From: an uncultured Acidimicrobiales bacterium
GTDB lineage: Bacteria > Actinomycetota > Acidimicrobiia > Acidimicrobiales > DATKAS01
Direction: 5' to 3'
Length of the DNA stretch: 64,000 nucleotides
NCBI GenBank assembly: GCA_963726495.1
Contig: CAVSCP010000006.1
Span: forward strand, 140,312 to 204,311
Positions within the stretch are counted from its first letter, which is position 1. Each line of letters begins with the position of its first letter. A program made the position numbers and the translations under genes. This document shows positions 8,217-51,885 of this stretch, one piece after another. A model generated the notes under the pieces. The model was given only the letters and a program-made list of their open reading frames with translations. It searched no databases and was not told where the DNA came from.

Positions 8217-8237
8217 CGGCGCTACCGTCGCGGCGCA

Positions 8238-17768: not shown

Positions 17769-17771
17769 GGC

Positions 17772-18224: not shown

Positions 18225-18234
18225 GCGAGATCCA

Positions 18235-20429: not shown

Positions 20430-20434
20430 GGCAC

Positions 20435-21238: not shown

Positions 21239-21242
21239 TTCA

Positions 21243-21258
21243 GGCATCGTACGATGCC
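21243..21258. promoter_or_regulatory. Perfect 16-bp palindrome GGCATCGTACGATGCC in the 22-bp gap between divergent genes (operator candidate)
   Basis: Read directly. It sits between the creatininase start (21238, minus) and the flavoenzyme start (21261, plus). Confidence 0.35.
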
Positions 21259-21260
21259 CG

Positions 21261-22809: not shown

Positions 22810-22879
22810 CGATTTCTTCGGTGTTTCTCACTGCAGGGCGTATGGGGCACGTTGCGCCAAGAGATCCAGCCGGCCCGGC

Positions 22880-23350
22880 TCAGGCGATCGGCTCCTGGCT
22901 GCTCCAAGGGAACTCGATCCACTTGTCGGTCTCGCGCCAGACGTACTCGCACTTCACGACCGATCGCGGCTTCTCGTAGAGGACCGCGCAGCGCACCTCG
23001 CTGACCTTGCCGACGCAGAAGTCCTTCACGAGGGCCAGCGTGTGGCCGGTGTCAGCGACGTCGTCGGCGACGAGCACGCGTGCCTCGGTGAGGTCGACGA
23101 GCTCAGGGGTCGGCGGAAGGATCATCGGGACGTCGAGTCGCTCGTCGATGCCGGTGTAGTACTCGACGTTCATCGTGTACAGGTTCTTGACCGAGAGCGC
23201 GTAGCCGAGGGTCGCGGCCACCAGCAGGCCTCCACGGGCGATGGCGAGGATGATGTTGGGCTCGAACCCGTCCTTGTGGACCATCCGGGCGAGATCGCGC
23301 GACCCCTCACCGAAGTCGGGCCACGTGAGGATCTCCTTCTCCACACTCAT
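22880..23350 (-). CDS. Phosphoribosyltransferase (Gpt-like purine PRT)
   Basis: Intact 156-aa ORF. AIARGGLLVAATL, PRPP loop VLVADDVADTGHTLA and WIEFPW, in the same order as E. coli Gpt. The ATG overlaps the stop of the upstream Moco subunit (ATGA at 23347-23350). Confidence 0.8.
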   Translation of the reverse strand: MSVEKEILTWPDFGEGSRDLARMVHKDGFEPNIILAIARGGLLVAATLGYALSVKNLYTMNVEYYTGIDERLDVPMILPPTPELVDLTEARVLVADDVADTGHTLALVKDFCVGKVSEVRCAVLYEKPRSVVKCEYVWRETDKWIEFPWSSQEPIA

Positions 23351-25644
23351 TCAGCGAACCTACTCGCGAGCGCGATGTCCTGAGGGCGCACCGGCACCCG
23401 TGTGAGCGCCGCGCCGGTGGCATCTCTGATCGCGGCCACCACCGCGGGTGTCGCTGCGATGCACGGCGGCTCCCCCACGCCCTTCGCACCGAGCGGCGCC
23501 TGTGGATCGGGCTCCTCGACGAGCGACACCAGCACGTCGGGAGCGTCGAGGGCGGTCGGCAACAGGTAGTCGGTGAACGACGCGTTGCGGATGAGCCCGT
23601 CGGTCACGACGATCTCCTCCATCACGGCGAGGCCGAGGCCTTGCGCGATGCCTCCTTCGATCTGGCCGACAACCGAGAGCGGGTTGAGCGCACGGCCGAC
23701 GTCCTGCGCGGTCGCCATCTGGATGACCCGCACGAGGCCGAGCTCGACGTCGACGTCGACGACCGCGCGCTGGGCGACGAACGCGAACGCGACGTGGCAC
23801 GCACCCTGGCCGCGCTCGTCGAGCTCTTCGGTGGCGCGGTGCCGGTAGGTCACGGTCTCCTCGAAGTGCTGGCGGGCGGTCGCGTCGGCGACGGAGACCC
23901 GCGCGCCGTCCACAGTGTCGACGACGTCGGTGCCCTCGATCGCCAATCGCACCGGGTCGACCCCCATGCCTGCAGCGACATGCTCGAACAGCCGCTCGCG
24001 CACCGCCGCGGCACGCCATGTCGGTCGCGCCGCCGGACATCCACGTCTGGCGCGACGCAGAGGTCGAACCCGCCGACCCGATCGTGGTGTCCGCCGGCTC
24101 GAGCACGACTTCGTCCACGCCGAGGATCTCGCGTGCGATCTGCGCGGCGATCGTGACGAACCCCTGCCCGACCTCGGCCGTCGCGAGCTTGAGCGAGACG
24201 GCGCCGTCGGCGAGCCGGCAGCGCGCCGTTGCGGAGTCGTCGAACCCTTCGGAGTACATGAGGTTCTTGATCGCGAGCGCATAGCCGACGCCACGCTTCA
24301 CGTGGCCGGAGTCGGCGGTGCGGCCCGCGCCGCCGGGACGAGCGAGCCACGCGCCATCGTCGGCCTCCGGGGGGAGCGGCAACGCGGCGGTCTCGCGCAG
24401 GCAGCGCACCGTGGGCGCCACGCTCTCGAGCCGTTGGCCGGTGACGAGCAGGTCGCCGGTCTCGATCGCGTTGCGCAACCGGATCTCGACGGGATCGAGC
24501 CCGCACGCCAGCCGCGAGCTTGTCGATCTGGCTCTCGTGCGCGAAGCAGGCCTGCTGCACACCGAACCCACGCATCGCTCCGCACGGCGGGTTGTTCGTG
24601 CGCACCGCCCATCCGTCGATGCGGGCGTTCGCCAGCCGGTACGGGCCCTGCACATGCGTGATCGCGTTGATGAGCACCGCGCTGGACGTCGATGCGTAGG
24701 CGCCCCCGTCGAGCACCACTCGGCACTCGAGGTTCACGAGGGTGCCGTCGGCGCGCGCGTGGTGCCGCATCCAGATCGTGCCGGGGTGCCGATGCACGTG
24801 GCCGAGGAACGACTCGTCACGGCCGTAGACCATCTTCACCGGACGGCCCAGACCTCAGCGCGAGCAGGCACACGTGCACTTGCAGGCTCACGTCCTCGCG
24901 CGCCCCGAACGCGCCGCCCACACCGGCGAGCTGAAGGCGCACTCGTTCCTCGGGCAGACCGAGGCACTCCGCGATCTGACGGCGATCCTCGTGCAGCCAC
25001 TGCGTCGAGATGAACAGCTCGACGCCGTGCCCGTCGCTGTCGGGCAGCGCGAGCGCGGACTCGAGGCCGAGGAAGGCCTGGTCCTGCATGCCGATCTCGT
25101 AGGTGCCCTCGACCACGACGTCACCGGCGACGCCTTCTGCACCGCACTCGATGCGCTGGTGGCGGAAGACGTTGCCGTCGGGATGGATCGGGGCCGCCTC
25201 GATGGCTCGCTCGGGATCGGTGAGCGGCTCGAGCACCTCGTACTCGACGATGATCGCCTCGCACGCGCGCCGGGCTGTCTCAGGATGATCAGCAGCAACC
25301 GCGGCGATCGCCTGACCCGCATAGAGCACGGTGTCGGACGCGAACACGGGCTGGTCCGCGCTGATGAGGCCGTAGGTCGCGCCGGGCACGTCCTCCGCGG
25401 TGACGATCACCTCGACGCCGGGGATGCGCCACGCAGGGCTCACGTCGAGCCGGCGGATGCGGGCATGGGGATGCGGCGACCGCAGCGTCTTCCCCCACAC
25501 CATCCCTTCGGCCCAGAGGTCGGAGGAGAACGCGAAGCGTCCCTGCACCTTCGGTGTCGCGTCGGGACGCGTCGGGCTCGCGCCGAGCACGGCGCGATCG
25601 CCGACGACCCGAGTCCCAAGGTCGGTCGTCTCGGTGTCGGTCAC
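23347..25644 (-). pseudogene. Xanthine-dehydrogenase-family molybdopterin-binding large subunit (CoxL/XdhB-like), about 3 frameshifts
   Basis: ORF 24817..25713 from GTG 25644 (VTDTETTDLG..PKVQGRFAFSSD..MQDQAFLGLES..GGAFGARED). ORF 23850..24839 (GGAYASTS..RTNNPPCGAMRGFG). ORF 23360..24655 (GLDPVEIRLRN..GQGF). ORF 23347..24294 (GQIEGGIAQGLG..GAKGVGEPP). The start overlaps the FeS subunit stop (GTGA). Confidence 0.85.
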
Positions 25645-26118
25645 GAGCCGTTCCGCTCTCGGGCCGCGGCTTGCACCGCCGCGAAGATGCGTCCGTAGCC
25701 CGTGCAGCGGCACAGGTTGCCCGACAGCGCCTCACGGATCGCGAGCGGATCGGGGTCGGGCACCCGGTCGAGGAGGTCGTGCACCGCGACGATGAGACCC
25801 GGCGTGCAGAAGCCACACTGCACCGCGCCCTCGGCGACGAACGCGCGCTGCACGTCGCTCAGCGAGCCGTCGCACGTGAGGCCCTCGACGGTCGTGATCT
25901 CGCGATCGACGACCGACGCCGCGAGCACGAGGCACGAGCACGTCAGCGTGCCGTCGACGACGACGGAGCACGAGCCGCACTCCCCCTGCTCGCAGGCGCC
26001 CTTCGCTCCGGGCAGGCCGAGCCGCTCGCGCAAGACGTAGAGGAGGCTCTCCCCCGCCCACGCGTCGTGGACGTCATGCATGCTCACCGTTGATGGTGAG
26101 CCGGTAGTGCTCGCTCAC
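25641..26118 (-). pseudogene. (2Fe-2S)-binding small subunit (CoxS/XdhC-type FeS), frameshift near 26085
   Basis: ORF 25641..26087 has CEQGECGSCSV and QCGFCTPG...CRCTGY. The true N-terminus VSEHYRLTINGEH is encoded at GTG 26118 in the frame of ORF 26074..27030. Confidence 0.85.
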
Positions 26119-26934
26119 GCGGCCGCCACCCTGCGCAGCGCGCGTGCTGCCATGACTTCGACCGCCCGCCGCCGGTATGCCGCGGTCGACCGGTGGTCGT
26201 CGATCGGCCTGACCTCGGCCGCGACTCGTAGACCGAACTCGTCGGGGTCGGCGCTCACGCCGCCGTTGGCCTCGGCCCACTGCTCCGCATCGCGTGCTCG
26301 GATGATCGTGGGGCCGACCGAGCCCGCCGCGACTCTCAGCGCCGCCGCGATCGACGACGAGCGCGAGGTTCGCGATCGCGATCACCATCGCGTTGCGCAC
26401 GCCGACCTTCATGAACTCTTGCGGCCCCTTCGGCAGCGCCACCACCACCTCGGTGACGAGCTCGCCGGGTTGCAGCGCGGTGCGCTTCGGCCCGACCAGG
26501 AAGTCGTGGATCGACAGGACACGCGAGCCGTTGAGCGACCGCATCACGATCGCGGCGTCGAGGGCCGAGAGGACGGGCAGCAGGTCGCCCGCGGGCGACC
26601 CCGTGCCGAGGTTCCCTCCGATCGTCGCCGCGTTGCGGATCTGGGGCGAGCCGACGGTGCGCGCGGCCTGCGCCAGGGCCGGCAGCGACTCGGCCAGCGG
26701 CGGCTGCATCAGCTGCGAGCACGTGACACCGGCGCCCAGCCGCACGGTCTCGCCCTCGATGTCCCACCGACGCAGCTCGTCGACCCGGGCCAGTGCGACG
26801 ACGTCCTCGGGCCGTCGATGGCCGAAGTTCACCTCGACCATGAAGTCGGTGCCACCCGCGAGCACGTGCGCGCCGGGATGCTCGGCGAGCGCCGCGAGGG
26901 CGTCGTCCAGCGTCGTCGGGCTCAGCACGGCCAT
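26115..26934 (-). pseudogene. FAD-binding molybdopterin-dehydrogenase medium subunit (CoxM-like), frameshift near 26340
   Basis: MAVLSPTTLDDALAALAEHPGAHVLAGGTDFMVE...ATIGGNLGTGSPAGD (ORF 26074..27030 from ATG 26934). My re-translation after ALVVD gives AAALRVAAGSVGPTIIRARDAEQW...IDDHRSTAAYRRRAVEVMAARALRRVAAA, with TGA overlapping the FeS GTG. Confidence 0.8.
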
Positions 26935-26959
26935 CGGGGGATTCTTGTCGGTCCCAGCC

Positions 26960-27019
26960 GACCGTTTGCTCACTGGGGGTTCGTGGGCCTGCGGTTTCCT
27001 CCGCAGTGAGCAAACGGTC
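26960..27019. promoter_or_regulatory. Perfect 16-bp inverted repeat with 28-nt spacer in a divergent promoter region
   Basis: GACCGTTTGCTCACTG (26960..26975) and CAGTGAGCAAACGGTC (27004..27019), read directly. They are flanked by a direct repeat TCCCAGCCG (26952..26960 and 27031..27039). The region lies between the coxM-like start (26934, minus) and the amidase start (27048, plus). Confidence 0.4.
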
Positions 27020-27047
27020 CTGCGCGACACTCCCAGCCGTGATCCGG

Positions 27048-28232
27048 ATGCCGGCCGACGATCCGCTCGGCGCGCTGAAGATCGGACCCGCCGTGCTCGC
27101 CGAGGGCGCGGCTGACGGCGCCCTGGCCGGCACGACGTTCGTCGCGAAGGACCTCTACGACGTCGCGGGCTACCCGACCGGAGCGGGCAACCCTCAGTGG
27201 GAAGCGACCCACCCGGTGCCGACGACCACCTCCTCTGCCGTCACCCGCCTGCTCGCGCGGGCGCGACGCTCATCGGCAAGAGCCACACCGACGAGCTCGC
27301 CTACAGCCTCTCGGGCACGAACGTGCACTACGGCACGCCGGTCAACAGCGCCGCGCCGGGGTGCGTCCCAGGAGGTTCGTCATCGGGATCGGCGTCGGCA
27401 GTGGCGGGCGGGCTGTGCGACTTCGCGCTCGGATCGGACACCGGCGGCTCTGTGCGCGTGCCGGCGAGCTTCTGCGGGATCTTCGGGCTGCGGCCGACCC
27501 ACGGCCGCGTCGCTGCGGATGGCGTCGTGCCGCTCGCGCCGTCATTCGACGCGGTGGGCTGGTTCGCCAACAGCGGCGCTGTCCTGATGCAGGTCGGACG
27601 CGTGCTCCTCGACGCGGACTTCGACGAGACCGCGCACCTGGCGGCGACCAAGCTGGTGCTCGCTGACGACCTGCTCGCGGCGGTGCCCGATGAGGTCGCC
27701 GCGGTGGTCGAGGCGGCAGCGCGAGAAGCGGCCACTCGTCTCGACCTGCAGCTCGAGCGTGGTTCCGTCGCGGACGGCGACATCGCCTCGTGGGCCGACT
27801 GCTTCCGCACGCTCCAACGCGGCGAGGCATGGGCATGCCATGGCGACTGGATCACCGCCACGCGACCGTCGTTCGGCCCGGGCATCGCGCAGCGCTTCGC
27901 CGACGCATCGCACGTCACCCCTGAGGAGGTCGCGGCCGCTCAACGGCGGCGTGTCGAGATCCGAGACCGGGTCGCTCGGAGCACCGCGGGCGGCGTCGTG
28001 TTCGCTCTGCCACCCGCACAGGGTCCGGCCTATCGCGTCGACCTCGAAGGCCCAGCGAAGGAGGCCGTGCGGGCGGGCGCGTTGGCACTCACGTGCGCTG
28101 CCGGCCTCGCGGGCACGCCGCAGGTGACCGTTCACGGCGGCACGGTCGACGCGAAGCCGGTCGGGCTCGGCCTGCTCGGGGGCCCACGGGATGGACGAAG
28201 CGCTCCTCGCGATGGCCGCCGCGCTCGACTAG
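27048..28232 (+). pseudogene. Amidase (amidase-signature family), 2 frameshifts (about 27260 and 28185)
   Basis: ORF 27006..27587 from ATG 27048 (MPADDPL..FVAKDLYDVAGYPTGAGNP). ORF 27197..28651 (GKSHTDELAYSLSGTNVHYGTP..PGGSSSGSASAVA..ALGSDTGGSVRVPASFCG). My re-translation of the end gives HGMDEALLAMAAALD-TAG (28230..28232). Confidence 0.8.
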
Positions 28233-29608
28233 GGGATCTGGAACCTCGCCGCGACGCGGCGGTGCCACGTGAGCATCTCGTCGACTCGATCGTCGGCGAG
28301 GGCCCCGTCGCGCACGACCACCCGACCGGCGACGACCGTGTGCTTCGCCGCGCTCGGCCCGCACCGCAACCACGCCTCGACCGGATCGCTGATCGCGCCG
28401 GCATGCGCGATGTCGCCGGCGACCGGCCACACCACGAGATCGCCGACTGCGCCGACCGTGAGCTCACCGATCTCACCGGCGCGGCCGAGGCACCCGGCGC
28501 TGCCGCGAGTCGCGATCTCCAGCGCGTCACGCGCGCCCGTCGACGCCGGACCTCCGCGCAGCCTCCCGAGGAGCATCGCGTTGCGCGCCTCCATCCAGAG
28601 CGAAGCCGAGTCGGTGGACGACGACCCGTCGCATCCGAGACCGACGGGTGAGCCAGCCGCGCGCATCGCGGCAACGGGAGCGATCCCGCCCCCGCCGATC
28701 ATCATGTTCGAGCTCGGGCAGTGCGCGACGCCCACGCCCGCCCGGCCGAGCCCCGCGACCTCGGCCTCGTTCGGGTAGATGCAGTGCGCGACCCAGCTGC
28801 GATCGGTCATCCACCCGACCGACTCGAAGTGGTCGATCGTGCGCCCGCCGAACTTCTCCGCCGCGAACCTGTCTTCGTCGGGGTCCTCGGCAAGGTGAGT
28901 GTGCAAACGCACGTCGAGCCGCTCGGCCAGCTCTGCGGTCCGCACCATCAGCTCGGAGGTCACGCTGAACGGCGAGCACGGCGCGAGCGCGATCCGCACC
29001 ATCGCACCCCGCGCTCGGTCGTGGTGCAACGCGACCAAGCGCTCGGAGTCGGCGAGGATCTCGTCGTCGTCCTGCACGACCGAGTCGGGCGGGAGCCCAC
29101 CGTCCTTCTCCGACAGGCTCATCGACCCCCGCGTCGGATGGAAGCGCATGCCGAGCTCGGTCGCGGCTCGGATCTCGGCGCTGATCAGGTCGCCACCGCC
29201 CCGCGGATGCACGTAGAGGTGATCGGTGGACGTCGTGCACCCCCCGAGAGCGAGCTCGGCGAGCCCGATCCATGCGGACACGTACGCGGCTTCCTCGTCG
29301 AGCCGGCTCCAGAGCGGATAGAGCGCCGTCAGCCAGTCGAAGAGCGATGCGACCGTCGCGGGCCGATAGGCGCGCGTGAGGTTCTGGTAGATGTGGTGAT
29401 GGGTGTTGATCAGCCCCGGCGTCACCAAGCACCCGCTCGCGTCGAGCACGACCTCGGCCGTCGGCATCGCGTCAGCCGAACCTCCGACAGCGCTCACGAA
29501 GCCGTCGGTGACCGCGACCCATCCACCCGCGATCTCACGGCGCTCGGCGTCCATCGTCGCGACGAGATCCGCGCCTCGCACGAGCAGATCGACAGGTGCG
29601 TCGGCCAC
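28229..29608 (-). CDS. Amidohydrolase of the 8-oxoguanine deaminase / AtzB-like group
   Basis: Intact 459-aa ORF. Motifs: TPGLINTHHHIYQNLTRA, RLHTHLAE, VAHCPSSN and GLGCDGSSSTD. Confidence 0.8.
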   Translation of the reverse strand: MADAPVDLLVRGADLVATMDAERREIAGGWVAVTDGFVSAVGGSADAMPTAEVVLDASGCLVTPGLINTHHHIYQNLTRAYRPATVASLFDWLTALYPLWSRLDEEAAYVSAWIGLAELALGGCTTSTDHLYVHPRGGGDLISAEIRAATELGMRFHPTRGSMSLSEKDGGLPPDSVVQDDDEILADSERLVALHHDRARGAMVRIALAPCSPFSVTSELMVRTAELAERLDVRLHTHLAEDPDEDRFAAEKFGGRTIDHFESVGWMTDRSWVAHCIYPNEAEVAGLGRAGVGVAHCPSSNMMIGGGGIAPVAAMRAAGSPVGLGCDGSSSTDSASLWMEARNAMLLGRLRGGPASTGARDALEIATRGSAGCLGRAGEIGELTVGAVGDLVVWPVAGDIAHAGAISDPVEAWLRCGPSAAKHTVVAGRVVVRDGALADDRVDEMLTWHRRVAARFQIP

Positions 29609-29611
29609 GCG

Positions 29612-30025
29612 TCAGACCCGCATGCCGGCGACGGCCTCGACCTCGATCTCCACCTTCCATGCGGGGTCGAGCAGCGCCTTGACCACGAGCGTCGTGTTCG
29701 CCGGGCGGGTGTCCGCGAACAGCTCGCCGTGCACCGCGCCGATCTCGTCGAAGTCCTGCGCCTCGACGAGGAAGATGCGCGTGCGAACGACGTCGGCGAG
29801 CGTGGCGCCCGCTTCGCGGAGGGCGGCCTCGATGATCTCGAAGCACCGCCGCGCCTGCACGGTCGGGCTGGGGTCGACATGCCCGTCCGGCCACTGTGGC
29901 GCGGTGCCGGCAACGAAGATGCGGTCGCCCACCCGCACCGCTCTGCTGTATCCGACGATCAGCTCGTACGGCCCGCCCGACGAGACGAGCTGCCGGTGTT
30001 CGCTCACGCGTCCTCCCTGTTGCAC
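29612..30025 (-). CDS. RidA (YjgF/Rid) family protein
   Basis: Intact ORF with YSRAVRVGDRIFVAGT and VVRTRIFL...VEIEVEA. The start may be GTG (VSEHRQL) 18 nt downstream of 30025. Confidence 0.85.
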   Translation of the reverse strand: MQQGGRVSEHRQLVSSGGPYELIVGYSRAVRVGDRIFVAGTAPQWPDGHVDPSPTVQARRCFEIIEAALREAGATLADVVRTRIFLVEAQDFDEIGAVHGELFADTRPANTTLVVKALLDPAWKVEIEVEAVAGMRV

Positions 30026-30047
30026 GGGCGCTCACGCGCCCTCCTGT

Positions 30048-31060
30048 TCACACGGCCCAATCTGCAAACGCGTCGATCATGAGCCGGACATCATCGCCCA
30101 GCGGGTACAGGATCGGGCACGTACTTCCGGCGGCGACGTACTCGGCGACCTTCGCGCGGCACTCGTCGGGCGTGCCCGAGGCGGTGATCATCTGCACGAT
30201 GTCGTCGGGCACGAGCTTCGACGCGGCGACGACCTGCTCGTGGGTCGCCGGCCACGTGAGCACCTTGCCGATCTCGTCGAGCAGCGACTCGGGCACGCCA
30301 CGACGCCTTCATGATGTGGGGCTGCTGGCCGAGGTACTGGGTGACGAGGAGGCGCGAGCGCATCGAGCGCGCGGCCGCGATCTTCGTCGAGCGAGCACAC
30401 GACGAGCTGCGGCCGGTCGATCGTCGTCGAGCGTCGCGTCCCGCCTTGGCCGCGCCCCTCGCGAGATGCTCGAGCGCGGTCGCGTTGTACGCGGGAGACA
30501 CGAGGTAGTTGAGGACCACGCCGTCGGCGATCTCGCCCGTGAGCTCCATCATCTGCATGCCCGTGGCGCCGATGTAGATGGGGACGTCCTTCGGCTCGCG
30601 CTCCTGATGCACGTAGTCGAGCTCGACGCCGTCGAGGTGCACGAACTCGCCGTCGAACGTGACGGTCTCGTTCGGCGAGCAGCGCCGCGGACGGCCTCGA
30701 CGATCTCGCGCATGGCCTTGAGCGGCCTCGCCCGGTCGACGCCGACCTTCCGCGGCGAGCGGGTCCCACCACGCGCCGATCCCGAGGATCACGCGACCCG
30801 GGGCGAGGTCGTCGAGGGTGGAGAACGTCGACGCGAGCAGCGCGGGGTTGCGGGTCCACATCGCGACCACGCCGCTGACCGACCTTGATGCGCTCGGTGA
30901 CCGCAGCGAACGCGGCCATCGGCACCGTCGCCTCGCGCACCAGCCGGCTCTCGGCCTGCCACACCGCCTCGAACCCGCGCTCCTCGGCGTACCGCACGTA
31001 GTCCATCGCCTCGCGGAGCGGGTGGGCGTCCTGGAGGTACAGCGCGACGGGTGCGGCCAT
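30048..31060 (-). pseudogene. LLM-class oxidoreductase, 3 or more frameshifts
   Basis: [61 protein letters not shown] (ORF 30188..31192 from ATG 31060). ORF 30091..30870 ([36 protein letters not shown]...[29 protein letters not shown]). ORF 30048..30296 gives the C-terminus. Confidence 0.75.
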
Positions 31061-31067
31061 CAGTCGG

Positions 31068-32099
31068 TCATAGCAGCCGGTGGAGGCGCCTGGCTTGCTC
31101 GGCGGCCTGCGCGCGCACCTCGATCGGGTCGACCCGGGTCGCGACGCCGTCGCGCAGCACGACCTCACCGTCGATCTCGACGTCGACGGCACGGACGTCG
31201 GTGGTGAAGGCGAGCGACCACGGATCCATCGCGTCGTACGACCACCGCACGACGTCGCCGCGGGCCTCCGGCACCAGCTGCCATCCGTTCTCGAGCCACG
31301 ACCACGCCGCCTCGGGTGAGGCCTCGACGTCGTCCTCGCGATGACGTACGAAGGCGAGGCGGAACTCGTCGAGCATGTCTGCCCCGATGCCGTCGGTGCC
31401 GAGCACGATCGGGTTCGATCGCGACGCGGGCCTCGCGTAGCCGACGGCGTTGTTCATGTTCGAGCGCGGGTTGTGCGCGATCGTGCCCGGCAGGTCTTGT
31501 TCGAGGTGCACGGCGTGGACGAGCAGCCACGACTCGTCTGCGAGCGCGGCGAGCCGCTTCCCCGCGTCCGAGTCGACCGTCCCCTCGGCGACGTGGATGT
31601 GGACGCCGACGCCGAGGTCGCGCGCGAGGCCGGCGGCCGCCTCGAGCGTCTCGTCGCTGCACGTGAACGCGGCGTGGACACCGACGAGCCCTCGTCCCCC
31701 GCCGCGGAGGAACCGCTCGTTCTCGGCCAGCCCGCGCCGAGCACCCGTCGGCGCCGTGGCGGTCGGTCACGCCGTAGGCGCACACGACCCGCACGCCGAC
31801 CTCGGCGGCACGCGTCGGCGATCACGTCGAGCGAGCCCTCGATCGCGTGAGGGCGACTCGTGATGGTCGACGATCGCAGTCGTTCCGCACTCGAGCGCCT
31901 CGAGCGCGCCGAGCATCGCCGACCACCTCAGCATCTCGAGGTCGAGCGCGACGTCGAGCCTCCACCAGACCTGCTCGAGGATCTCGACGAACGTCGTCGG
32001 TGTGCGCGGTGGCGAAGGCATGCCGCGAGCGAGCGCCGAGTACAGGTGATGGTGCGCGCAGACGAGCCCGGGCGTCGTCGCGCTCACGCGGCGAGTCAC
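31068..32099 (-). pseudogene. ssnA: SsnA-like putative aminohydrolase, about 3 frameshifts, short N-terminus
   Basis: TPGLVCAHHHLYSALARGMP..FVEILEQVWWRLDVALD..GALEALECGTTAIVDHHESP (ORF 31767..32156). VRVVCAYGVTDRHG (ORF 31165..31794). [32 protein letters not shown] (ORF 31068..31511). These parallel E. coli SsnA PGIVCSHNHFYSGLSRGI / LWWRLDRALD / VIDHHASP / HNARSNMNNHVGY / LGTDGIGSDMFEEMKFAF as I recall it. GTG 32099 overlaps the upstream stop (GTGA). Confidence 0.75.
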
Positions 32100-34702
32100 T
32101 CGTCGGTGTCGGAGCCCGACGACGCGCCGCGGCGCATCGGCAGCGTGGAGCGCCATGCGCCGTCGAGGTCGTGCAAGGCGGCAGCCACCGCGCCCGCCGT
32201 GGGCACCAGGCCGATCTCACCGACACCCTTGATGCCGTACGGCGCGTTCGGCTGCGGAGACTCGACGAGGATCACCTCGACGCGCGGCATGTCCTTCGGG
32301 CGGATGATGCCGAGGCTCTTCAGCGTCATGTTCGTCGGCCGGCCCTCGGCGTCGGCCGGGAAGTCCTCGGTGAGCGCGTAGCCGAGACCCATGTGCACCG
32401 AGCCTTCGATCTGGCCCTCGCACAGCAGAGGGTTGACGGCGCGGCCCACGTCGTGCGCAGCGACGACCTTGTCGACGTTGCCACTCTCGCGATCGACGAC
32501 GACGAGCTGCGACGCGTAGCCGAACGTCGAGTGGATCACCGGGTGCTCGAGGCCCTCGGCGAGCGAGTTCGTCCAGTCGACGCGGTACTCGCCCTCGTAG
32601 TCGACGCCCGGCTTGCAGCCAGCGGCGCGCGCGGCCTCGCACGCCGCCTTCACCGAGCCCGCACCCATCAACGTGCCTCGGCTGCCGGTCGTCTGGCCCG
32701 CGCCGAGCTCGCGGGACGTGTCGACGAGCACGCGGATGCGCGTCGGGGTCGACCTGCAGCTCCTCGACCGCGACCTGACGGGCCACGGTGTGCACGCCCT
32801 GCCCCATCTCCGTCCAGCAGTGCCGGACCTCGATGGTGCCGTCCTCCTCGAACCGCACGACCGCGCGCGCGATCTCCTTGAAGCCGTTGCCGAGGCCCGA
32901 GTTCTTGAGCCCGAGGCCGAGCCCGACGGCGGCTCCCGAGGCGACTGCGTCGTCGTAGGCCGGCTTGATCGCGTCGAGGCACGCACGCGCGCCGAGGCAG
33001 CCGTCGTCCATGATCTGACCGGGTCCCCACACCGAGCCCGGGGTCACGACGTTGCGCGCACGGATCTCCCAGCCTGAGATCCCGACCGCGTCGGCGAGGC
33101 GATCGAGCACGCCCTCCATCGCGAACTGCGCCTGGTTCGCGCCGAAGCCGCGGAACGCGCCACACACCGGGTTGTTCGTGCGGGCCGCGATCGAGTCGAC
33201 GTCGATCGCCGGCACCACGTACGGACCACTGGCGTGCCCTGCCGACCGCTCGAGCACCTTCATCCCGACCGAGGCGTACGGGCCGGAGTCGCCGACCATG
33301 CGCGCCCGCAGCGCGGTGAGCCGTCCGTCGTCGTCGCAACCGGCCCAGTACTCCATCCGGATCGGGTGCCGCTTCGGGTGGATCAGCAACGACTCCTCAC
33401 GCGAGAGCGTGCACTTCACGGGCCGCCCGGTCAGCCACGACGCCAGCGCGGTCTGGGCCTGGTTGGACATGTCCTCCTTGCCGCCGAACGCGCCGCCGTT
33501 CGCGACGAGCTCGACCGTCACGCGTCCCGCGTCGATGCCGAGCACCGACGCGATCTGGTCGCGGTCGTCCCAGACCCCCTGGCCTCCCGACCACACGTGC
33601 AGCCCATCGGACCCGTCGGGCAGGACCACCGGCGCGACGAGGGTCGACTCGGGCTCGAGGAACGCGTGCTCGATGCGCTGGGTCTGGAACACCTCGTGCA
33701 CGACGTGCGCGCTCGCCGCCAGCGCGGCATCGACGTCGCCGCGCGCATACGTCGACCGCGACAGCACGTTGCCTTCGAGACCCCACACCGCGTCGTCCGC
33801 GCCGGACGCGATGGCCTGCGCGCGGATCGACGATCGGCGGCAGCGGCCGATAGTCGACTTGGACGAGCTGTGCGGCGGCGCGGGCGGTCTCGCGGTCCTC
33901 CGCGACGACCATCGCGAGGACGTCACCCAGATAGGAGGTGCGCCCGCCTTCGGGGATGAAGATCGGCCAGTCCTTGTGGATCAACCCGACGCGGAGCGCG
34001 CCAGGTATGTCGGCGGCGGTGAGGACGCGCACGACACCCGGCACCGCGGCCGCGGCCGTCACGTCGATGCCGACGACGTCGGCGCGGGCGTGCGCCGCGA
34101 GATGAAACGCGCCGTGGAGCATGCCGGGAAGGACGAGGTCGTCGACATACGGCTTGTCGCCGAGCGAGAGCTCGAGGCCCTCGTAGCGAAGTCCGCTCGT
34201 GCCGACACCGCCGCACGCGGGTGGTTCGACGTCGCCACCCGTGCGCGAGCAGCTCGATCGCATCGAGGATCTTCACGTAGCCCGTGCACCGGCAGAGGTG
34301 CGCGCCGAGGTGGCGCGCCGCGTCTTGACGCGTCAGGTCGGCGCCCTTCTTCGCGATCAGCGCCTTCGTGCGCATCACGATGCCGGGCGTGCAGAACCCA
34401 CACTGCAGGGCGCCGGTCGACGCGAAGACCCTCGCGTAGCGATCGCGCTCCTCGGTGGGCATGCCTTCGAGGGTCGTGATCCCCCGACCGGCGGTCTTGG
34501 CGAGCGACGTCTGGCAGCTCACCTGCGCCTTGCCGTCGAGCAGCACCGTGCAACACCCGCACTGCCCCGACGGCGAGCACCCGTCCTTCGGCGAGAGGAC
34601 GCCGAGCTCCTCGCGCAGCGCGGCGAGCAGGTGGGGATGGTCGCCACGGCACGACACCGAGATGCCGTTGAGCACGAAGGAGACAGGTTCGGCGCCGATC
34701 AC
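32096..34702 (-). pseudogene. Molybdopterin-dependent hydroxylase with fused N-terminal [2Fe-2S] domains and no FAD domain (XdhD/Mop-type), about 3 frameshifts
   Basis: ORF 33923..34702 (CSPSGQCGCCTV, QCGFCTPG, CRCTGY). ORF 33397..34263 (GTSGLRYEGLELSLGDKPYVDD..ADIPG). ORF 32217..33926 (IEHAFLEPES..GGAFGGKED..NNPVCGAFRGFG..EMGQGV). ORF 32096..32986 (GQIEGSVHMGLG..GIKGVGE). The FeS and Moco parts join in one polypeptide near 34250. Confidence 0.8.
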
Positions 34703-34718
34703 CCCAGTCTAGGAAGTG

Positions 34719-35600
34719 TCACCGGCGGGAACGGCCCCCGAGCGCGTCGAGCACGATCGCAAGGTTCGCGTCACACCAGGCCACGGCGGTCCAGTGCGAC
34801 GACGCCCGGTAGCGATCCTGGGCGTCGACGAACCGGTCCGCGGCCTCGTTCAGACGGCCCTCCTCGGCGAGCAGCACCCCGAGGTTCTGATCGCACCACG
34901 CAACCGGGAGCTCGACCTCGGCCGCGAGGAACCCGGCGCGCGCCTCGCGCACCCGCTCCATCGCATCACTCGAGCGCTGCTGCTCCCACAGCACGAACGA
35001 CTCGTTGAACGCAACCGACGCGAGGTCTGCGGCGCTGTTCGCGAAGCACGCGCGCGCGTCGGCGAAGTGGTCGAGCGCCGCGTCGAGCTCGCCGGCCTTG
35101 GCACGGAGCACGCCGAGATCGTTGTCGCAGACGCCCGCGTCGCGGAGCTGATCGGCCTTCGTGAAGAGCTCACGCGCGCTCACCAGCAAGGTGACGACGT
35201 CGCGGTCGCGGCCCAGGCTGTGCAGCACCGCGGCGAGCTGCTGCTCGCACGCGGCGAGCTCGGCGGGGTCGCTCTGCCCGTCGAGCAGCTTGCGGCGAGC
35301 GGCGGCGAGGCGCTTGCTCGCATCGAGCGGACGCCCGAGCGCGAGGAGAAGCCGCGCCGCGAGCCGATCGCACAGGATCTCGCCCTGCGAGTCGCCTGAA
35401 GCGAAGAAGGCCTCACGCGCCTCGTCGATCGCCTCGAGCGCCTCGTTCGGCCGCTGCCGACCTTGGAGCCCGACCGCGAGGCGCGCGAGCGCCCGGGCCC
35501 GGCGCGCGGGATCGTCCGTGTGGGACTCGTCCCGGAGCCTGGCCAGCTCGTCGAGCGCGTCGAGGTTCTGGCCGTCCCCGTCCGCGCCCGTGTGATCCAC
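34719..35600 (-). CDS. TPR-like repeat protein (first gene of the xdhD/ssnA operon?)
   Basis: Part of ORF 34719..35888 from GTG 35600, preceded by GGAGAGAAGGGG. It contains repeated roughly 40-aa helical units (for example ...AWCDQNLGVLLAEEGRLNEAADRFVDAQDRY...). Only 16 nt separate it from the next gene. Confidence 0.6.
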   Translation of the reverse strand: MDHTGADGDGQNLDALDELARLRDESHTDDPARRARALARLAVGLQGRQRPNEALEAIDEAREAFFASGDSQGEILCDRLAARLLLALGRPLDASKRLAAARRKLLDGQSDPAELAACEQQLAAVLHSLGRDRDVVTLLVSARELFTKADQLRDAGVCDNDLGVLRAKAGELDAALDHFADARACFANSAADLASVAFNESFVLWEQQRSSDAMERVREARAGFLAAEVELPVAWCDQNLGVLLAEEGRLNEAADRFVDAQDRYRASSHWTAVAWCDANLAIVLDALGGRSRR

Positions 35601-37426: not shown

Positions 37427-39184
37427 ATGAGATTGAGGCATGTTCGTCCGCGGCATCGCGCCGCGCTCGCACTCGGCGCCTCGCTGCTCGCGTTCGGGTT
37501 GCTCGCCGCCGCGTGCGGAAGCGACGACAGCGGGAGCAGCGCGGGCACCACAGCCGCCGGAGGCGGCGGCGCCAGCACGACAGCCGGAGGTGGAGCCGCA
37601 ACGACGCAGCGGCAGCGGCCGAGACGCCGACGCCGGGCGGCAAGCTCGTGTTCGGCCTCGAGGCCGACACCGGCAGCCCGTGGGAGCCGTCGAAGGCGCT
37701 GCTCGCGATCTCGGGTCACACCGTCATCGCGGTCGGTGTTCGATCCGCTCGCGCTCGCGACGGTCGACGGCAAGGTCGAGCCGTACCTCGCCGAGTCGAT
37801 CACGCCGAACGCGGACTACACGGTATGGACGATCAAGGCCCGCTCGGGCGTCACGTTCCACGACGGCACGCCGTTCGACGGCGCTGCGATCGTCGACAAC
37901 CTCACTCGCCAGTTCAAGTCGTTCCTGACCGGGAAGGTGTTCTCGGACGTGGCGACCAATGCTGACGGCTCACCGCAGATCGTGGTCGACCCCGCGGACC
38001 CGATGTCGGCGCAGATCACGATGAAGCGCTCGTGGGTGCCGTTCCCGATCTACCTCACGGGCCAGATCGGCTACATGGCGAGCCCGACGTGGATGAAGCC
38101 GCGGCCGACAAGGACCCGGCGCTCGAGTCCAAGCCGGTCGGCACGGGTCCGTTCGTCTTCAAGGACTACAAGCCGGGTGAGTCGTTCGACGCGACGAAGA
38201 ACCCGAACTACTGGAACAAGCCGTACCCGTACCTCGACGAGGTCGAGTTCCGCGTGATCCCCGACGGCAAGACGCGCGCCTCGGCGCTCGAGGCCGGCGA
38301 CGTGAACATGATCCACACGGACGACGGCGAGAACATCGCCAAGTTCCGCAGTGAGGCCGACCAGTTCCCGATGACCGAGGTGTCGGCGTTCGGGGAGACG
38401 GGCTACACGCTGCTGAAGGTCGACGACCCCGGCGAGCCCGCTGTCCGACGCGCGCGTGCGCTGCGCGATGGCGTACGCGACCGACGAGCAGGCGCTCATC
38501 GACAAGCTCGGTGCCGGCATCAACAAGGTCGCGAGCGGTCCGTTCTCACCGACCCAGGTCGGCTACTTGCCCGACACGGGCTACCCGCTGAAGCAGGACA
38601 TGGCCAAGGCGCAAGAGCTCGTCAAGTCGTACAAGGCCGACCACCCGGGCCCGCTGAACATCAACCTGTCGACGACGCAGGACGCGACCGCACTCGTCAT
38701 CGCTCAGGCCCAGCAGGAGTTCTTCAAGCAGGCCGGCTTCGACAACGTGCAGATCAGCCAGATCGAGCAGGCGAAGTACATCCTCACGGCGCTGCAAGGT
38801 GACTTCCAGGCCTTCCAGTGGCGCAACCACGGCGGTCTCGACCTCGACGCCCAGTACATCTGGTGGTCGTCCGAGAACGCGCTCCCGGTGGGTCAGCTCG
38901 CGCTGAACTTCGGGCGCATCAAGGACCCGGTGATCGACAAGGCGCTCTCCGACAACCGCGGGGCTACCGACCCGGCGGTGAAGAAGCAGCTCGCCGAGAC
39001 GGTCAACAAGGAGTTCGCGACCCAGTGCTACAACATCTGGGGCGACTGGGACCTCTGGGGTCTGCCGCACACGCCCGACGTCCACGGCATCGAGGACTTC
39101 ACCCTCCCGTCGGGTGACAAGGCGTGCCTCTGCAACGGCATCGCCGGCGTCTTCAACATCCAGTCGGTCTGGATCAAGCAGTAG
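37427..39184 (+). pseudogene. ABC peptide/nickel-type (family 5) substrate-binding lipoprotein, paralog 1, about 4 frameshifts
   Basis: MRLRHVRPRHRAALALGASLLAFGLLAAACGSDDSGSS (lipobox) in ORF 37214..38257. GGKLVFGLEADTGSPWEPSK (ORF 37357). KPVGTGPFVFKDYKPGES..NPNYWNKPYPYLDEVEFRVIPD (ORF 38032). C-terminus in ORF 38456..39184, ending SVWIKQ. Confidence 0.8.
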
Positions 39185-39217
39185 CCCACCCCGCGTAACC
39201 AGCGAGAACACGCGCTT

Positions 39218-39246
39218 CGGCGGGCGTCCCATGGGGGCGTCCGCCG
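39218..39246 (+). terminator. Terminator-like hairpin after SBP paralog 1
   Basis: CGGCGGGCGTCCC-atg-GGGGCGTCCGCCG forms a 13-bp stem if two G-U pairs are allowed. It lies 34 nt after the stop. There is no clear U-tract. Confidence 0.4.
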
Positions 39247-39267
39247 TTCGCGCGCACACGCCACGCG

Positions 39268-39296
39268 TTGACACCGCGCCAATGCCGCAATAGGTT
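39268..39296 (+). promoter_or_regulatory. Sigma-70-type promoter for SBP paralog 2
   Basis: TTGACA (39268..39273), 17-nt spacer, TAGGTT (39291..39296), read directly. The same boxes recur upstream of paralog 3. Confidence 0.5.
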
Positions 39297-39434
39297 CCGC
39301 GCCATCGTGCGTGTGGCGGGGGTCACATTCCACGGGTCCGCGACAGGGGGTGAGCTGGCAGAGGGAACCAGCCGCACGGACGGATAGCAGCAATGGACTG
39401 CGGGCGAGGGGCCCGCGTGAGTGGGGGAGTCTGC

Positions 39435-41182
39435 GTGAACCGACCGATCTCGAAACGACGCCGTACCGGCGCGCTCCTGGTTGCCGGGGGCCTCGCTTTG
39501 GCCCTCGTGGCCGCGGCGTGCGGGAGTGATGACAGCGGGAGCAGTGCCGGCACCACCGCAGCCGGCGGTGGAGCAGCGACGACAGCGGCGGGCGGTGCCG
39601 CGACGACGGCAGCTGCCGCAGCCGAGACGCCAGTGGCCGGGCGGCAAGCTCGTGATGGGCATCGAAGCCGACACAGGAAGCCCGTGGGAGCCCTCCAAGG
39701 CGCTCCTCGCGATCTCTGGTCACACCGTGATCCGGTCGATCTACGACTCGCTGACGATCGTCACCGACGAAGGCAAGGTCGTGCCCTACCTCGCCGAGTC
39801 CGTCGAGCCGAACGCGGACTACACGGTCTGGACGATCAAGGTGCGCTCCGGCGTCACGTTCCACGACGGCACGCCGCTGAACGCGGACGCCGTCATCGAC
39901 AACCTGAACCGTCACCTCGAAGTCGTTCCTCACGGCCGCGGTGCTCACCGACGTCGCGAAGGACGCCGAGCGGCGCCCCGCAGATCGCGAAGGTCGACGA
40001 CCTCACCGTCGCGATCACCATGAAGCGGCCGTGGGTGCCGTTCCCGCTCTACCTCTCGGGTGCGATCGGCTACATGGCCAGCCCGACGTGGCAGGCAGCC
40101 GCCGACAAGGATCCCGCGCTCGAGTCCAAGCCGGTCGGCACCGGTCCGTTCGTCTTCAAGGACTACAAGCCGGGCGAGTCGTTCACGGCGACGAAGAACC
40201 CGAACTACTGGAACAAGCCGTACCCGTACCTCGACGAGGTCGAGTTCCGCGTCATCCCCGACGCGCTCACTCGGTCCTCCGCGCTCGAGGCCGGTGACGT
40301 CGACCTGATCCACACGACGAACGGCGACACGATCAAGAAGTACCGGGGCGAGCCGGATCAGTTCCCGATGACCGAGTGGACCAAGTTCGGCGAGACGGGC
40401 TACACGCTCCTGCACGTCACGCAGGAGGGCTCACCGCTCACCGATCCGCGCGTGCGCTGCGCGATGGCCAACGCCACTGACAACCAGGCGATCATCGACA
40501 AGATCAACGCCGGCATCTCGCAGATCGCCAACGGGCCCTTCTCACCCGGCCAGCTCGGCAACGAGGCGGAGAACGGGTTCCCGCTCAAGCAGGACATGGC
40601 CAAGGCGCAGGAGCTCGTCGCGAGTCGTACAAGGCGGACCATCCCGGCCCGCTCAACATCAACCTCTCGACGACCCAGGACGCGACGAACCTGATCATCG
40701 CCCAGGCCCAGCAGGAGTTCTTCAAGGAAGCCGGCTTCGACGACGTGCAGATCAGCCAGATCGAGCAGGCGAAGTACATCCTCACGGCGCTTCAGGGCCA
40801 CTTCCAGGCCTTCCAGTGGCGCAACCACGGCGGGGTCGACCTCGACGCCCAGTACATCTGGTGGCACTCGTCGAACGCGCTCCCCGTCGATCAGCTCGCG
40901 CTGAACTTCGGGCGCATCAAGGACCCGGTCATCGACCAGGCCCTCGACGCGAACCGCGGCGAGACCGACCCGGCCAAGAAGAAGGAGCTGGCCGAGACGG
41001 TCGACAAGCAGTTCGCGACGCAGTGCTACAACCTCTGGGGCTCGTACACGGTGTGGGGGCTCGCCCACACGCCGAAGGTGCAAGGCCTCGAGGACTTCGT
41101 GGCACCGTCGGGCGAGAAGATCTGCCTCTGCAACGGCATCCAGGGCGTGATCAACATCAGCTCGATCTGGATCAAGCAGTAG
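39435..41182 (+). pseudogene. Family-5 ABC substrate-binding lipoprotein, paralog 2, about 4 frameshifts
   Basis: GTG 39435 (VNRPISKRRRTGALLVAGGLALALVAAACGSDDSGSS), preceded by GGGGGAG. Fragments in ORFs 39393..40694, 39481..40023 and 40745..41182. It is collinear with paralog 1 and ends SSIWIKQ. Confidence 0.8.
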
Positions 41183-41200
41183 CGCGACGCCGCGACCGCA

Positions 41201-41230
41201 CGACGGGCGCCCCGAGCGGGGCGCCCGTCG
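41201..41230 (+). terminator. Terminator-like hairpin after SBP paralog 2
   Basis: CGACGGGCGCCCC-gagc-GGGGCGCCCGTCG, a perfect 13-bp stem. There is no clear U-tract. Confidence 0.45.
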
Positions 41231-41254
41231 TCGCGCGTCTGTAACGGGGCTGCA

Positions 41255-41284
41255 TTGACACCGTGGCAACTGCAGTCGTAGGTT
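41255..41284 (+). promoter_or_regulatory. Sigma-70-type promoter for SBP paralog 3
   Basis: TTGACA (41255..41260), 18-nt spacer, TAGGTT (41279..41284). Confidence 0.5.
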
Positions 41285-41396
41285 CCGGTCGACCATGCAT
41301 GTGGCGGGGGTCACATCCTGCAGAGGGCGTCCAAAGGGGTGGGCGCAGCACGCCTGAGGGCTCTCGCCCAAGCGTCCACACAACAGAGGGGGAAGT

Positions 41397-50830: not shown

Positions 50831-50876
50831 AGATTGGTAGGTCGGGGCACTCATGCTGCCCCCGACCTACCAATCT
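50831..50876. repeat. Perfect 17-bp-stem palindromic element (bidirectional terminator candidate), copy 1
   Basis: AGATTGGTAGGTCGGGG-cactcatgctgc-CCCCGACCTACCAATCT, read directly. It lies between the convergent alkA-like and DUF559-like genes. A degenerate copy is at 51842..51885. Confidence 0.7.
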
Positions 50877-51790: not shown

Positions 51791-51841
51791 CTGCACCGCC
51801 ACGACGCAACACGGTGACAAGGGGGTGTGACATTCCCTCCG

Positions 51842-51885
51842 GATTGGTAGTTCGGGCGTCTCAGGCGTGCCTCGAGCTACCAATC
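51842..51885. repeat. Palindromic element, degenerate copy 2
   Basis: GATTGGTAG-TTCGGG...CTCGAG-CTACCAATC: a 9-bp perfect outer stem plus 6 inner pairs if G-U is allowed. It shares ATTGGTAG / CTACCAATCT with copy 1. It lies between the DUF559-like start and the stop (51937) of the upstream minus-strand gene. Confidence 0.6.

Follow-up and report, generated by a model that had tools for sequence, protein, structure and literature searches.

We analysed a 64,000-nt window of genomic DNA from an uncultured Acidimicrobiales bacterium, in which six minus-strand genes between positions 28229 and 35600 form a compact unit around a fused iron-sulfur/molybdenum cofactor (FeS-Moco) hydroxylase and an SsnA-like amidohydrolase. 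The G+C content of the window is approximately 70% and spurious open reading frames (ORFs) are frequent; the combination of third-position GC content (GC3) and Pfam domains resolved six real genes in this interval, and the best matches of the locus proteins lead to Acidimicrobiales. The first gene of the unit encodes a TPR-like protein of approximately 293 residues (34719–35600), a single ORF starting with GTG at 35600. It is followed by the fused hydroxylase (32096–34702), which consists of two [2Fe-2S] domains, a hammerhead domain, and the MoCoBD_1 and MoCoBD_2 domains with no flavin adenine dinucleotide (FAD) domain, and which comprises approximately 869 residues when the pieces carrying Pfam domains in three frames are stitched together. 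The third gene encodes a short form of SsnA-like amidohydrolase (31068–32087 or 32099; 338 residues from GTG 32087 or 342 residues from GTG 32099), and the fourth encodes a luciferase-like (LLM) oxidoreductase of approximately 334 residues (30048–31060), whose Pfam Bac_luciferase domain lies in two frames. The last two genes are intact and encode a RidA/YjgF-family protein (29612–30025; 137 residues, or 131 from GTG 30007) and an 8-oxoguanine-deaminase-family amidohydrolase (28229–29608; 459 residues).

The TPR and Moco genes are separated by 16 nt. The Moco stop codon overlaps GTG 32099 of the SsnA-like gene as GTGA, and the gap is 8 nt with the homologue-supported start GTG 32087. The SsnA/LLM, LLM/RidA, and RidA/deaminase junctions measure 7, 22 (40 if RidA starts at 30007), and 3 nt, respectively. 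An initial annotation of this DNA had placed the six genes in this order and with these domain identities, which Pfam and NCBIfam confirm. It had described all gaps as 16 nt or less or as GTGA overlaps; the tight packing stands, with the LLM/RidA junction as the exception. It makes no mention of reading-frame breaks, which three of the six genes (Moco, SsnA-like, and LLM) show in the window. For comparison, we used 81 related loci, comprising 80 species-level loci retrieved with the Moco protein and the locus L001. One of these loci, L002, is from a clean Illumina metagenome-assembled genome (MAG). The closest relative, L084, belongs to a sister assembly and is 94% identical to the window at the nucleotide level. 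The arrangement is far from a chance one: the Moco and SsnA-like genes occur together in 74 of the 81 loci and are directly adjacent in most.

Analysis of the fused Moco protein with Pfam identified the Fer2/Fer2_2, Ald_Xan_dh_C, MoCoBD_1, and MoCoBD_2 domains and no FAD_binding_5, in agreement with the FAD-less fusion that had been proposed. A YgfM-like FAD subunit is encoded next to the fused gene neither in the window nor in any of the 81 loci, and the sole YgfM-like match of the window belongs to a separate three-subunit enzyme, whose FAD subunit it represents (26.4–26.9 kb). The protein had also been called XdhD-type. It does share the XdhD architecture, but its score against the XdhD family TIGR03313 is far below the cutoff (182.7 bits for the window and 155.4 for L002, cutoff 1101.9), and it aligns with Escherichia coli XdhD only in pieces with 27–37% identity. 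The best family is instead TIGR03311, now named "selenium-dependent xanthine dehydrogenase" and previously selenium-dependent molybdenum hydroxylase 1, with 820.5 bits for the stitched protein and 795.4 for L002, just below the cutoff of 830.45. The match to this family, with which the protein shares its domain architecture, is end-to-end, from residues 8–859 on profile positions 2–843 of 848.

Alignment in the numbering of bovine xanthine oxidoreductase (XOR) revealed that the Moco protein keeps the equivalents of Q767, E802, R880, R912, F914, and E1261, while A1078 is replaced by Thr in the window, L084, L002, and L023. According to Liu et al. (bioRxiv 10.1101/2025.04.24.650524), the 2,8-dioxopurine dehydrogenase (DOPDH) of Clostridium sporogenes differs from bovine XOR only at F1009 (F1009V) and A1078 (A1078T/S), and thus the clostridial enzyme also keeps Glu802 and Arg880. 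Assignment of the F1009V exchange was attempted as well; the region falls in a four-residue alignment gap and no call was made. The closest solved structure, with a full-length alignment, is the Desulfovibrio gigas aldehyde oxidoreductase (MOP, PDB 1SIJ/1VLB), which is likewise an FeS-Moco single chain without FAD. However, MOP has GYKF where the window protein has the XDH-type GGKE containing Glu802, and the score against the MOP family NF045668 is 395 bits with a cutoff of 1100. The placement in an aldehyde oxidoreductase clade, which had been considered as the case against an XdhD-like enzyme, is thus not borne out by the GGKE motif and the retained Arg880. As judged from these residues, the predicted active site is of the xanthine-oxidase type.

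The SsnA-like protein is related to SsnA and scores below both SsnA family cutoffs (NF005540, 255 bits with a cutoff of 444; TIGR03314, 236 bits with a cutoff of 455.5). For all SsnA-like proteins tested, the scores are 255–271 bits for NF005540 and 236–258 bits for TIGR03314, and the next family reaches at most 81 bits (78 for the window protein). The SsnA models thus score approximately three times any other family, unlike the generic chlorohydrolase that had been named as the alternative. Coverage of the SsnA profile is restricted to positions ~56–349, and the identity with E. coli SsnA is 33–36%, from residue 56 onward (33% over residues 56–357). P0121, an intact database protein of 338 residues, shares 94% identity with the stitched sequence, and 338–340 residues is the usual length, found in nearly all of the best 120 homologues. 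In the loci examined, the protein begins 5–10 residues before the motif GLVCAHHH, with the Moco stop codon 0–40 nt upstream. The nearest longer relatives (400–450 residues, 45–54% identity), retrieved from 1.8 billion cluster representatives, align from their residues ~47–63. The earlier observation that a segment of about 50 residues is missing from the N-terminus is therefore confirmed (approximately 55 residues), and the short form is conserved in the clade. A longer SsnA N-terminus that would share the 3' end of the Moco gene in a different frame, as in the 374-residue ORF of L002, was considered and rejected, as such extensions are of low complexity and not conserved.

The residues H12, H14, H162, H164, H190, H204, and D231 are invariant in an alignment of 33 sequences, E. 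coli SsnA among them. The HxH, His, and Asp metal ligands appear to be conserved, with the metal-binding residues assigned by the superfamily motif. The AlphaFold2 model of the SsnA-like protein has a pLDDT of 89.6 and a pTM of 0.90, and its best PDB folds are the subtype-III amidohydrolases 7WW2, 3HPA, and TM0936, with template-modelling (TM) scores of 0.82 when normalised to the query and 0.63 when normalised to the target. These values are consistent with a barrel that is complete and an accessory domain that is reduced. In L084, an O-methyltransferase gene (9007–9987; Dimerisation and Methyltransf_2 domains, 326 residues) is located between the Moco and SsnA-like genes; it is not found in the window, where the two genes abut.

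The 15 best NCBIfam matches of the LLM protein are all F420-dependent families, each below its cutoff, with Mer as the best (177 bits, cutoff 276). In the PDB, it is closest to F420-dependent structures of Mer (E 4e-43), and Mer together with the actinobacterial F420-dependent LLMs forms its closest set of sequence and structure matches. The reaction of these enzymes is the transfer of a hydride to an N-heterocycle, at a C=N or C=C bond; in the present case, the substrate is presumed to be 2,8-dioxopurine. The deaminase passes the 8-oxoguanine deaminase equivalog model NF006055 (588.7 bits, cutoff 532), and its PDB matches include 3HPA (E 1e-124) and 7WW2 (E 5e-119). The product of 8-oxoguanine deaminase is urate. 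A deaminase of the same family, 41–49% identical, is the last gene of the operon in L002 (553.9 bits) and in approximately 14 other loci. On the opposite strand, an amidase ORF (27197–28651, plus strand) seems to overlap the convergent deaminase gene by 420 nt at its 3' end. Compared with L084, the window has an additional C at 28185, and this base has probably eliminated the true stop codon of the amidase, near 28230.

The initial annotation had compared the Moco-SsnA pair with an E. coli region that it described as poorly understood, and the function of this region was worked out in 2025 (PMC12507026; PMC12990295). In E. coli, XdhD-YgfM reduces urate to 2,8-dioxopurine, YgfK dearomatises the product, and SsnA opens the ring (PMC12507026; PMC12990295). 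The sequence from urate through 2,8-dioxopurine to the ring-opened ureidomethylhydantoin has been shown biochemically with XdhD or XdhAC, YgfK, and SsnA (PMC12507026; bioRxiv 10.1101/2025.04.24.650524), with YgfK activity being detected only when coupled to SsnA (PMC12507026). The FAD-less XdhAC of C. sporogenes performs the first step and needs SelD (bioRxiv 10.1101/2025.04.24.650524). Li et al. noted that, in Chloroflexota, the place of YgfK/UacX in SsnA neighbourhoods is taken by a PF00296 gene for a putative F420 enzyme of the "luciferase family" (PMC12507026, Fig. 3c).

Comparison of the 81 loci revealed how the LLM gene relates to YgfK. Orthologues of the LLM gene occur in 47 loci, about 40 of them with the gene 3–80 nt downstream of SsnA. 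YgfK-like genes occur in 20 loci, often at the LLM position. In the 74 loci that carry both Moco and SsnA-like genes, LLM occurs in 46 and YgfK-like in 16, mostly directly downstream of SsnA. The two genes were never found together (0 of 81 loci; hypergeometric P = 3e-10, calculated without phylogenetic correction). The lack of co-occurrence and, in most loci, the shared place directly after SsnA support LLM as a substitute dearomatising reductase. The mutual exclusivity is the pattern expected of non-orthologous displacement, provides comparative evidence on the replacement of YgfK, and constitutes the chief new support for LLM as the dearomatising reductase.

The YgfK-like proteins of Ilumatobacter-type loci (L023 13183–14952 and 19 others) are mostly short, consisting of the N-terminal ~405 residues and the C-terminal 4Fe-4S dicluster domain without Pyr_redox_2, the NAD(P)H/FAD domain; L071 and L037 carry longer versions. 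The loci with neither LLM nor a YgfK-like gene have a conserved protein of ~511–522 residues right after SsnA (L033 13189–14724, L046 14051–15607, L050 9247–10782, and L058 13561–15129), and the L033 copy gives only a weak PALP match.

The conserved core in Acidimicrobiia is M20, CN-hydrolase, FeS-Moco, SsnA, LLM, and the 8-oxoguanine-deaminase family. In most Acidimicrobiia loci, the fused Moco gene is immediately preceded by those for M20 and CN-hydrolase. In L002, a single packed operon runs from a three-subunit xanthine dehydrogenase (XDH; FAD, FeS, and Moco subunits) through M20, CN-hydrolase, FeS-Moco, SsnA, and LLM to the 8-oxoguanine deaminase, and genes for a Bmp-type ABC transporter and a PALP enzyme come after it. 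In the lineage of the window, the TPR gene takes the place of the upstream CN-hydrolase gene and RidA is inserted between LLM and the deaminase. LLM, RidA, and TPR had all been regarded as foreign to the E. coli model: RidA and TPR are indeed lineage-specific, while LLM had already been noted in Chloroflexota and belongs, with the deaminase, to the core. Genes of the known lower pathway stand beside SsnA-LLM in sister loci, namely YgeX-like in 13, HyuA-like in 3, and YgeY-like in 2, and YgeX-like directly follows LLM in L064 and L073.

On this evidence, we propose, with a probability of approximately 60%, that the cluster is the upper module of an Acidimicrobiia-type reductive (2,8-dioxopurine, "yanthine") urate degradation pathway in an F420/LLM variant. 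In the proposed pathway, the deaminase would convert 8-oxoguanine to urate, which might also come from the three-subunit hydroxylase or from uptake. The FAD-less FeS-Moco fusion, a candidate urate/2,8-dioxopurine oxidoreductase, would interconvert these two compounds as an enzyme of the C. sporogenes XdhAC/DOPDH kind and not of the E. coli XdhD-YgfM kind. The Mer-related and presumably F420H2-dependent LLM, a candidate 2,8-dioxopurine (yanthine) reductase replacing YgfK, would dearomatise 2,8-dioxopurine by hydride transfer in place of YgfK/UacX. The short SsnA-like amidohydrolase, a candidate ring-opening hydrolase, would then drive the unfavourable reduction by hydrolytic ring opening. RidA may quench an imine or enamine intermediate. 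The ureido or hydantoin products could pass to nearby non-orthologous hydrolases, namely the CN-hydrolase, the M20 amidohydrolase, and perhaps the creatininase-family protein.

The cluster shares its logic with the E. coli ygfK-ssnA-ygfM-xdhD/ygeW-X-Y-hyuA cluster, in which an FeS-fused Moco hydroxylase likewise stands beside an SsnA-family hydrolase and a reductase gene with purine-related neighbours, and in which purine reduction is followed by the pull of ring hydrolysis. The E. coli cluster differs in its other Moco family with the YgfM partner, in YgfK where the window has LLM, in an SsnA with the N-terminal ~55 residues that the window form lacks, and in genes that are not in the window (HyuA, YgeW, YgeX, YqeA, UacT, YqeB/C, and MocA). 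The XdhAC (DOPDH) clusters of C. sporogenes and Clostridioides difficile likewise contain an FAD-less FeS-Moco fusion with no known electron donor and an SsnA association, and the C. sporogenes enzyme, compared here by its published description, has an XO-like active site with Thr/Ser at A1078. In contrast, the clostridial enzyme depends on selenium and SelD and comes with YqeBC, none of which is near the window cluster, and the clostridial clusters use YgfK or UacX and not LLM. The Chloroflexota SsnA clusters resemble the window in the PF00296 LLM next to SsnA replacing YgfK/UacX; that case is a genome-neighbourhood observation in another phylum, whereas the short SsnA N-terminus and the conserved CN-hydrolase, M20, and 8-oxoguanine-deaminase partners are described here for Acidimicrobiia.

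Several points weigh against the proposed urate pathway. The SsnA-like and LLM proteins score below every curated family cutoff, no electron donor is evident for the FAD-less Moco enzyme, and the position of F1009 is not alignable. The role of LLM is a hypothesis here as in the literature, and every enzymatic step of the variant is inferred. No homologue of HyuA, YgeW, YgeX, E. coli-type YgeY, YgfK, or UacT was found in the window at E ≤ 1e-3, and the lower pathway therefore rests on non-orthologous candidates. Acidimicrobiia are mostly aerobes. The published commentary limits the pathway to anaerobes and facultative anaerobes (PMC12990295).

The Moco protein itself raises a further objection. 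It has Glu802 and Arg880, the typical xanthine-oxidising pair, at positions that are Gln and Asn in the proven urate reductase XdhD of E. coli, and its best NCBIfam name, "selenium-dependent xanthine dehydrogenase", fixes neither the substrate nor the direction. The same genes could accordingly be read as an oxidative module for a purine, pterin, or other N-heterocycle, in which the Moco enzyme would work oxidatively, as a genuine xanthine dehydrogenase or a purine hydroxylase, or would act on lumazine, pterin, or an 8-oxopurine. The pair and the family name would suit such a module, but the C. sporogenes DOPDH keeps both residues as well, and the window protein has the A1078T exchange. LLM and the SsnA-like protein would then handle another heterocycle, for example, a pterin deaminated by the "deaminase", whose family includes isocytosine and pterin deaminases. 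It fits with this that Mer, the nearest characterised relative of LLM, reduces a pterin derivative and that one member of the deaminase family, 7WW2, has been described as specific for isocytosine; yet LLM and YgfK-like genes swap at the same position, and the sole characterised function in the SsnA family is the ring opening of reduced 2,8-dioxopurine (PMC12507026). The Moco subunit of the three-subunit hydroxylase has Asn for bovine Arg880, like E. coli XdhD, and this enzyme may not be the xanthine-oxidising one of the cell, a point in favour of the oxidative module. Against this module stand the YgeX-, HyuA-, and YgeY-like genes in sister loci, and we consider the oxidative module unlikely.

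A selenium requirement would be compatible with the reductive urate pathway. The association of the Moco-SsnA pairing with selenium-dependent molybdenum hydroxylases, mentioned in the initial annotation, has since been shown experimentally in gut anaerobes (Liu et al., bioRxiv 10.1101/2025.04.24.650524). The Moco enzyme could be a labile-selenium-dependent molybdenum hydroxylase with selD, yqeB, and yqeC elsewhere in the genome. The full-length alignment with TIGR03311 just under the cutoff points in this direction; so does the clostridial case, in which the C. sporogenes DOPDH needs SelD and all gut strains with the cluster have YqeBC and SelD, although no sequence signature separates selenium- from sulfur-dependent enzymes (Liu et al., bioRxiv 10.1101/2025.04.24.650524). 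In the 64-kb window, tblastn with the E. coli proteins (E ≤ 1e-3) found no homologue of SelD, YqeB, or YqeC, which agrees with the previous reading of this stretch, and the scanned parts contain no AIRS or XdhC-type Pfam domains. SelD was found in none of the 81 loci with their ±10-kb flanks, and YqeB/YqeC are missing from the flanks of 77. Three loci (L018, L029, and L032) do have both YqeB- and YqeC-like genes at a distance of no more than 10 kb, and L071 has a YqeC-like gene, but where present they adjoin a different, more XdhD-like gene. A selenium-dependent enzyme in the window is therefore rather doubtful in our assessment. In the marine Acidimicrobiia L018 (17061–21960), L032 (17083–21953), and L029 (13883–16114), the YqeB/YqeC-like genes are located 5–7 kb downstream of the cluster, and in L018 and L032 a further Moco gene, with 36% identity to E. 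coli XdhD, comes after them. This is a hint that some Acidimicrobiia possess the selenium-cofactor trait.

A broader form of the proposal is more tentative, and we lean slightly against it as it stands: that mostly aerobic soil, marine, and sponge-associated Acidimicrobiia run a 2,8-dioxopurine pathway with an F420H2-dependent, Mer-like LLM as a novel type of yanthine reductase, a minimal SsnA that lacks the N-terminal portion of the beta-sandwich, a TIGR03311-like Moco enzyme without the selD/yqeB/yqeC trait, and a non-orthologous lower half (CN-hydrolase and M20). The reductive urate pathway, solved in 2025, has been described as a selenium-dependent trait of gut anaerobes, and the cluster suggests that a differently equipped version is common in environmental Actinomycetota. 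If true, the "anaerobic gut" urate pathway would extend to environmental aerobes, and a selenium-independent branch would exist in an enzyme family held to be selenium-dependent. Published surveys probably miss this variant, as would others that use family cutoffs or at least 80% coverage. One survey relied on membership in IPR017700 (PMC12507026), and the Acidimicrobiia SsnA-like proteins, below the TIGR03314 cutoff, are probably outside the IPR017700 set used by Li et al. The other required at least 80% query coverage and at least four of seven clostridial genes. In addition, the cluster offers a naturally minimised SsnA for structure-function work and a test case of whether TIGR03311-type enzymes always need a selenium cofactor.

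The frame breaks bear on whether the Moco, SsnA-like, and LLM genes are functional. Fourteen lasting single-base insertions are distributed across these three genes within 4.65 kb. The Moco gene is split into four ORFs in three frames, with +1 shifts near 34235, 33818, and 32741 as located by tblastn with the intact L002 and L023 proteins. The SsnA-like gene has 1-nt insertions at 31848, 31805, and 31746, so that three frames are used within 31880–31740, and an in-frame stop at 31767 lies within an out-of-frame stretch. The LLM gene has eight lasting shifts (30878, 30753, 30684, 30675, 30433, 30425, 30359, and 30303) and an additional compensated insertion/deletion pair (30596/30599). In L084, all three genes are intact (871, 338, and 334 residues). 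Comparison with L084 revealed that every mapped shift except that at ~34235 corresponds to one extra base in the window, mostly outside homopolymer runs. At ~34235, the window linker is 14 nt shorter than that of L084, which fits a 15-nt in-frame deletion plus one inserted base.

When the window genes are read in the frame of L084, no internal stops remain, and the ratios of synonymous to amino-acid-changing codon differences are 77:16 for Moco, 45:17 for SsnA-like, and 39:8 for LLM, not distinguishable from those of the unbroken neighbours. The breaks are not confined to the cluster. GC3-based segmentation gave approximately 100 frame segments over 64 kb, and Pfam domains continue across frame switches in the GGT, aldehyde dehydrogenase, M20, three SBP_bac_5, and second XDH Moco subunit genes. 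A comparison with L084 over approximately 20 kb gave 51 single-base insertions in the window and 17 deletions of one base, mostly outside homopolymers. L084 in turn has its own insertions elsewhere, where its deaminase is truncated and its TPR gene split, both being intact in the window, and L001 is broken at yet other positions. In Illumina MAGs, the Moco genes are intact with 870–872 residues (872 in L002). Because the three genes are intact in L084, no stops remain once the extra bases are removed, the codon differences are mostly synonymous, and the breaks are window-wide, we treat them as artefacts; these observations, from the comparison of assemblies, argue that the breaks are single-base insertion errors of the assembly and that the genes are functional in the organism.

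Real decay of the operon, with the pathway lost in this strain and only the deaminase, RidA, and TPR proteins functional, could be suspected from the 14 frame-disrupting insertions in 4.65 kb compared with none in the flanking 2.7 kb of the six-gene unit. The synonymous excess equal to that of intact neighbours and the lack of internal stops after removal of the extra bases speak against it, as do similar single-base insertions in many unrelated window genes and the breaks of L084 and L001 in other genes and at different positions. Moreover, there are no deletions or rearrangements other than the 15-nt in-frame linker difference, and we consider decay very improbable.

Two other explanations of the breaks were rejected. 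Programmed or conserved frameshifting or selenocysteine recoding in the Moco gene had been suggested by the many database homologues on long contigs that have 400–680 residues instead of approximately 870; however, the break points differ between assemblies, the Illumina MAGs are intact, and the breaks are shifts and not in-frame UGA codons. Homopolymer-type long-read errors do not explain inserted bases that are mostly outside homopolymer runs. Frame switches at approximately one per kb are seen in many unrelated genes, for example, at 6579–8876, 21462–22881, 23377–25600, and 37528–43009. With about one single-base insertion per kb, apparent pseudogenes, truncations, and fusions in the window need checking.

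Of the two lineage-specific proteins of the unit, the TPR-like protein gives only a weak match to Pfam TPR_12 and no NCBIfam match, and its orthologues are limited to the close relatives L001, L024, L039, and L084. RidA is assigned by PF01042 (Ribonuc_L-PSP; 91 bits, cutoff 27.3, E 7e-26) and is below the cutoff of TIGR00004 (66.2 bits, cutoff 106.25). It is present only in the window and the same four relatives, and the gene differs from that of L084 by 14 synonymous and no amino-acid-changing codons.

Further genes of the context lie downstream of the unit, all on the minus strand. The three-subunit Moco hydroxylase and an HPRT-like phosphoribosyltransferase occupy 22882–27030, as identified by Pfam on stitched translations and by tblastn, with the FAD subunit at 26074–27030, the [2Fe-2S] subunit at ~25600–26050, the Moco subunit at ~23377–25600 (with frame breaks), and the transferase at 22882–23366. 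All of these genes are intact in L084 (hydroxylase at L084 15070–18652). They are followed by genes for a creatininase-family protein (20443–21461, Pfam), an M20 amidohydrolase (~19170–20440, in three frames; tblastn with the L002 M20, 62–76% identity), a CN-hydrolase (18238–19161; tblastn with the L002 CN-hydrolase, 67% identity), and a DUF6941 protein (17767–18240, Pfam). The M20, CN-hydrolase, and creatininase-family genes are thus 8–14 kb from the cluster, and the M20 and CN-hydrolase proteins are candidates for cleavage of the ureido group and the ring in the lower pathway.

Pfam annotation covered the window outside the ABC-transporter stretch (41.6–47.4 kb) and the cell-envelope region (51.9–64 kb). 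Searches of the window and the region for Rfam families, tRNAs, and terminators gave no match; the sole signal was a promoter-like site upstream of the divergent adenylate kinase gene. At 50831–51939, approximately 1.1 kb shows no usual third-position GC signal, with ORF fragments on both strands and no Rfam or tRNA match. At 37528–43009, three tandem SBP_bac_5 genes with approximately 81% DNA identity to each other precede a single set of ABC permease and ATPase genes.

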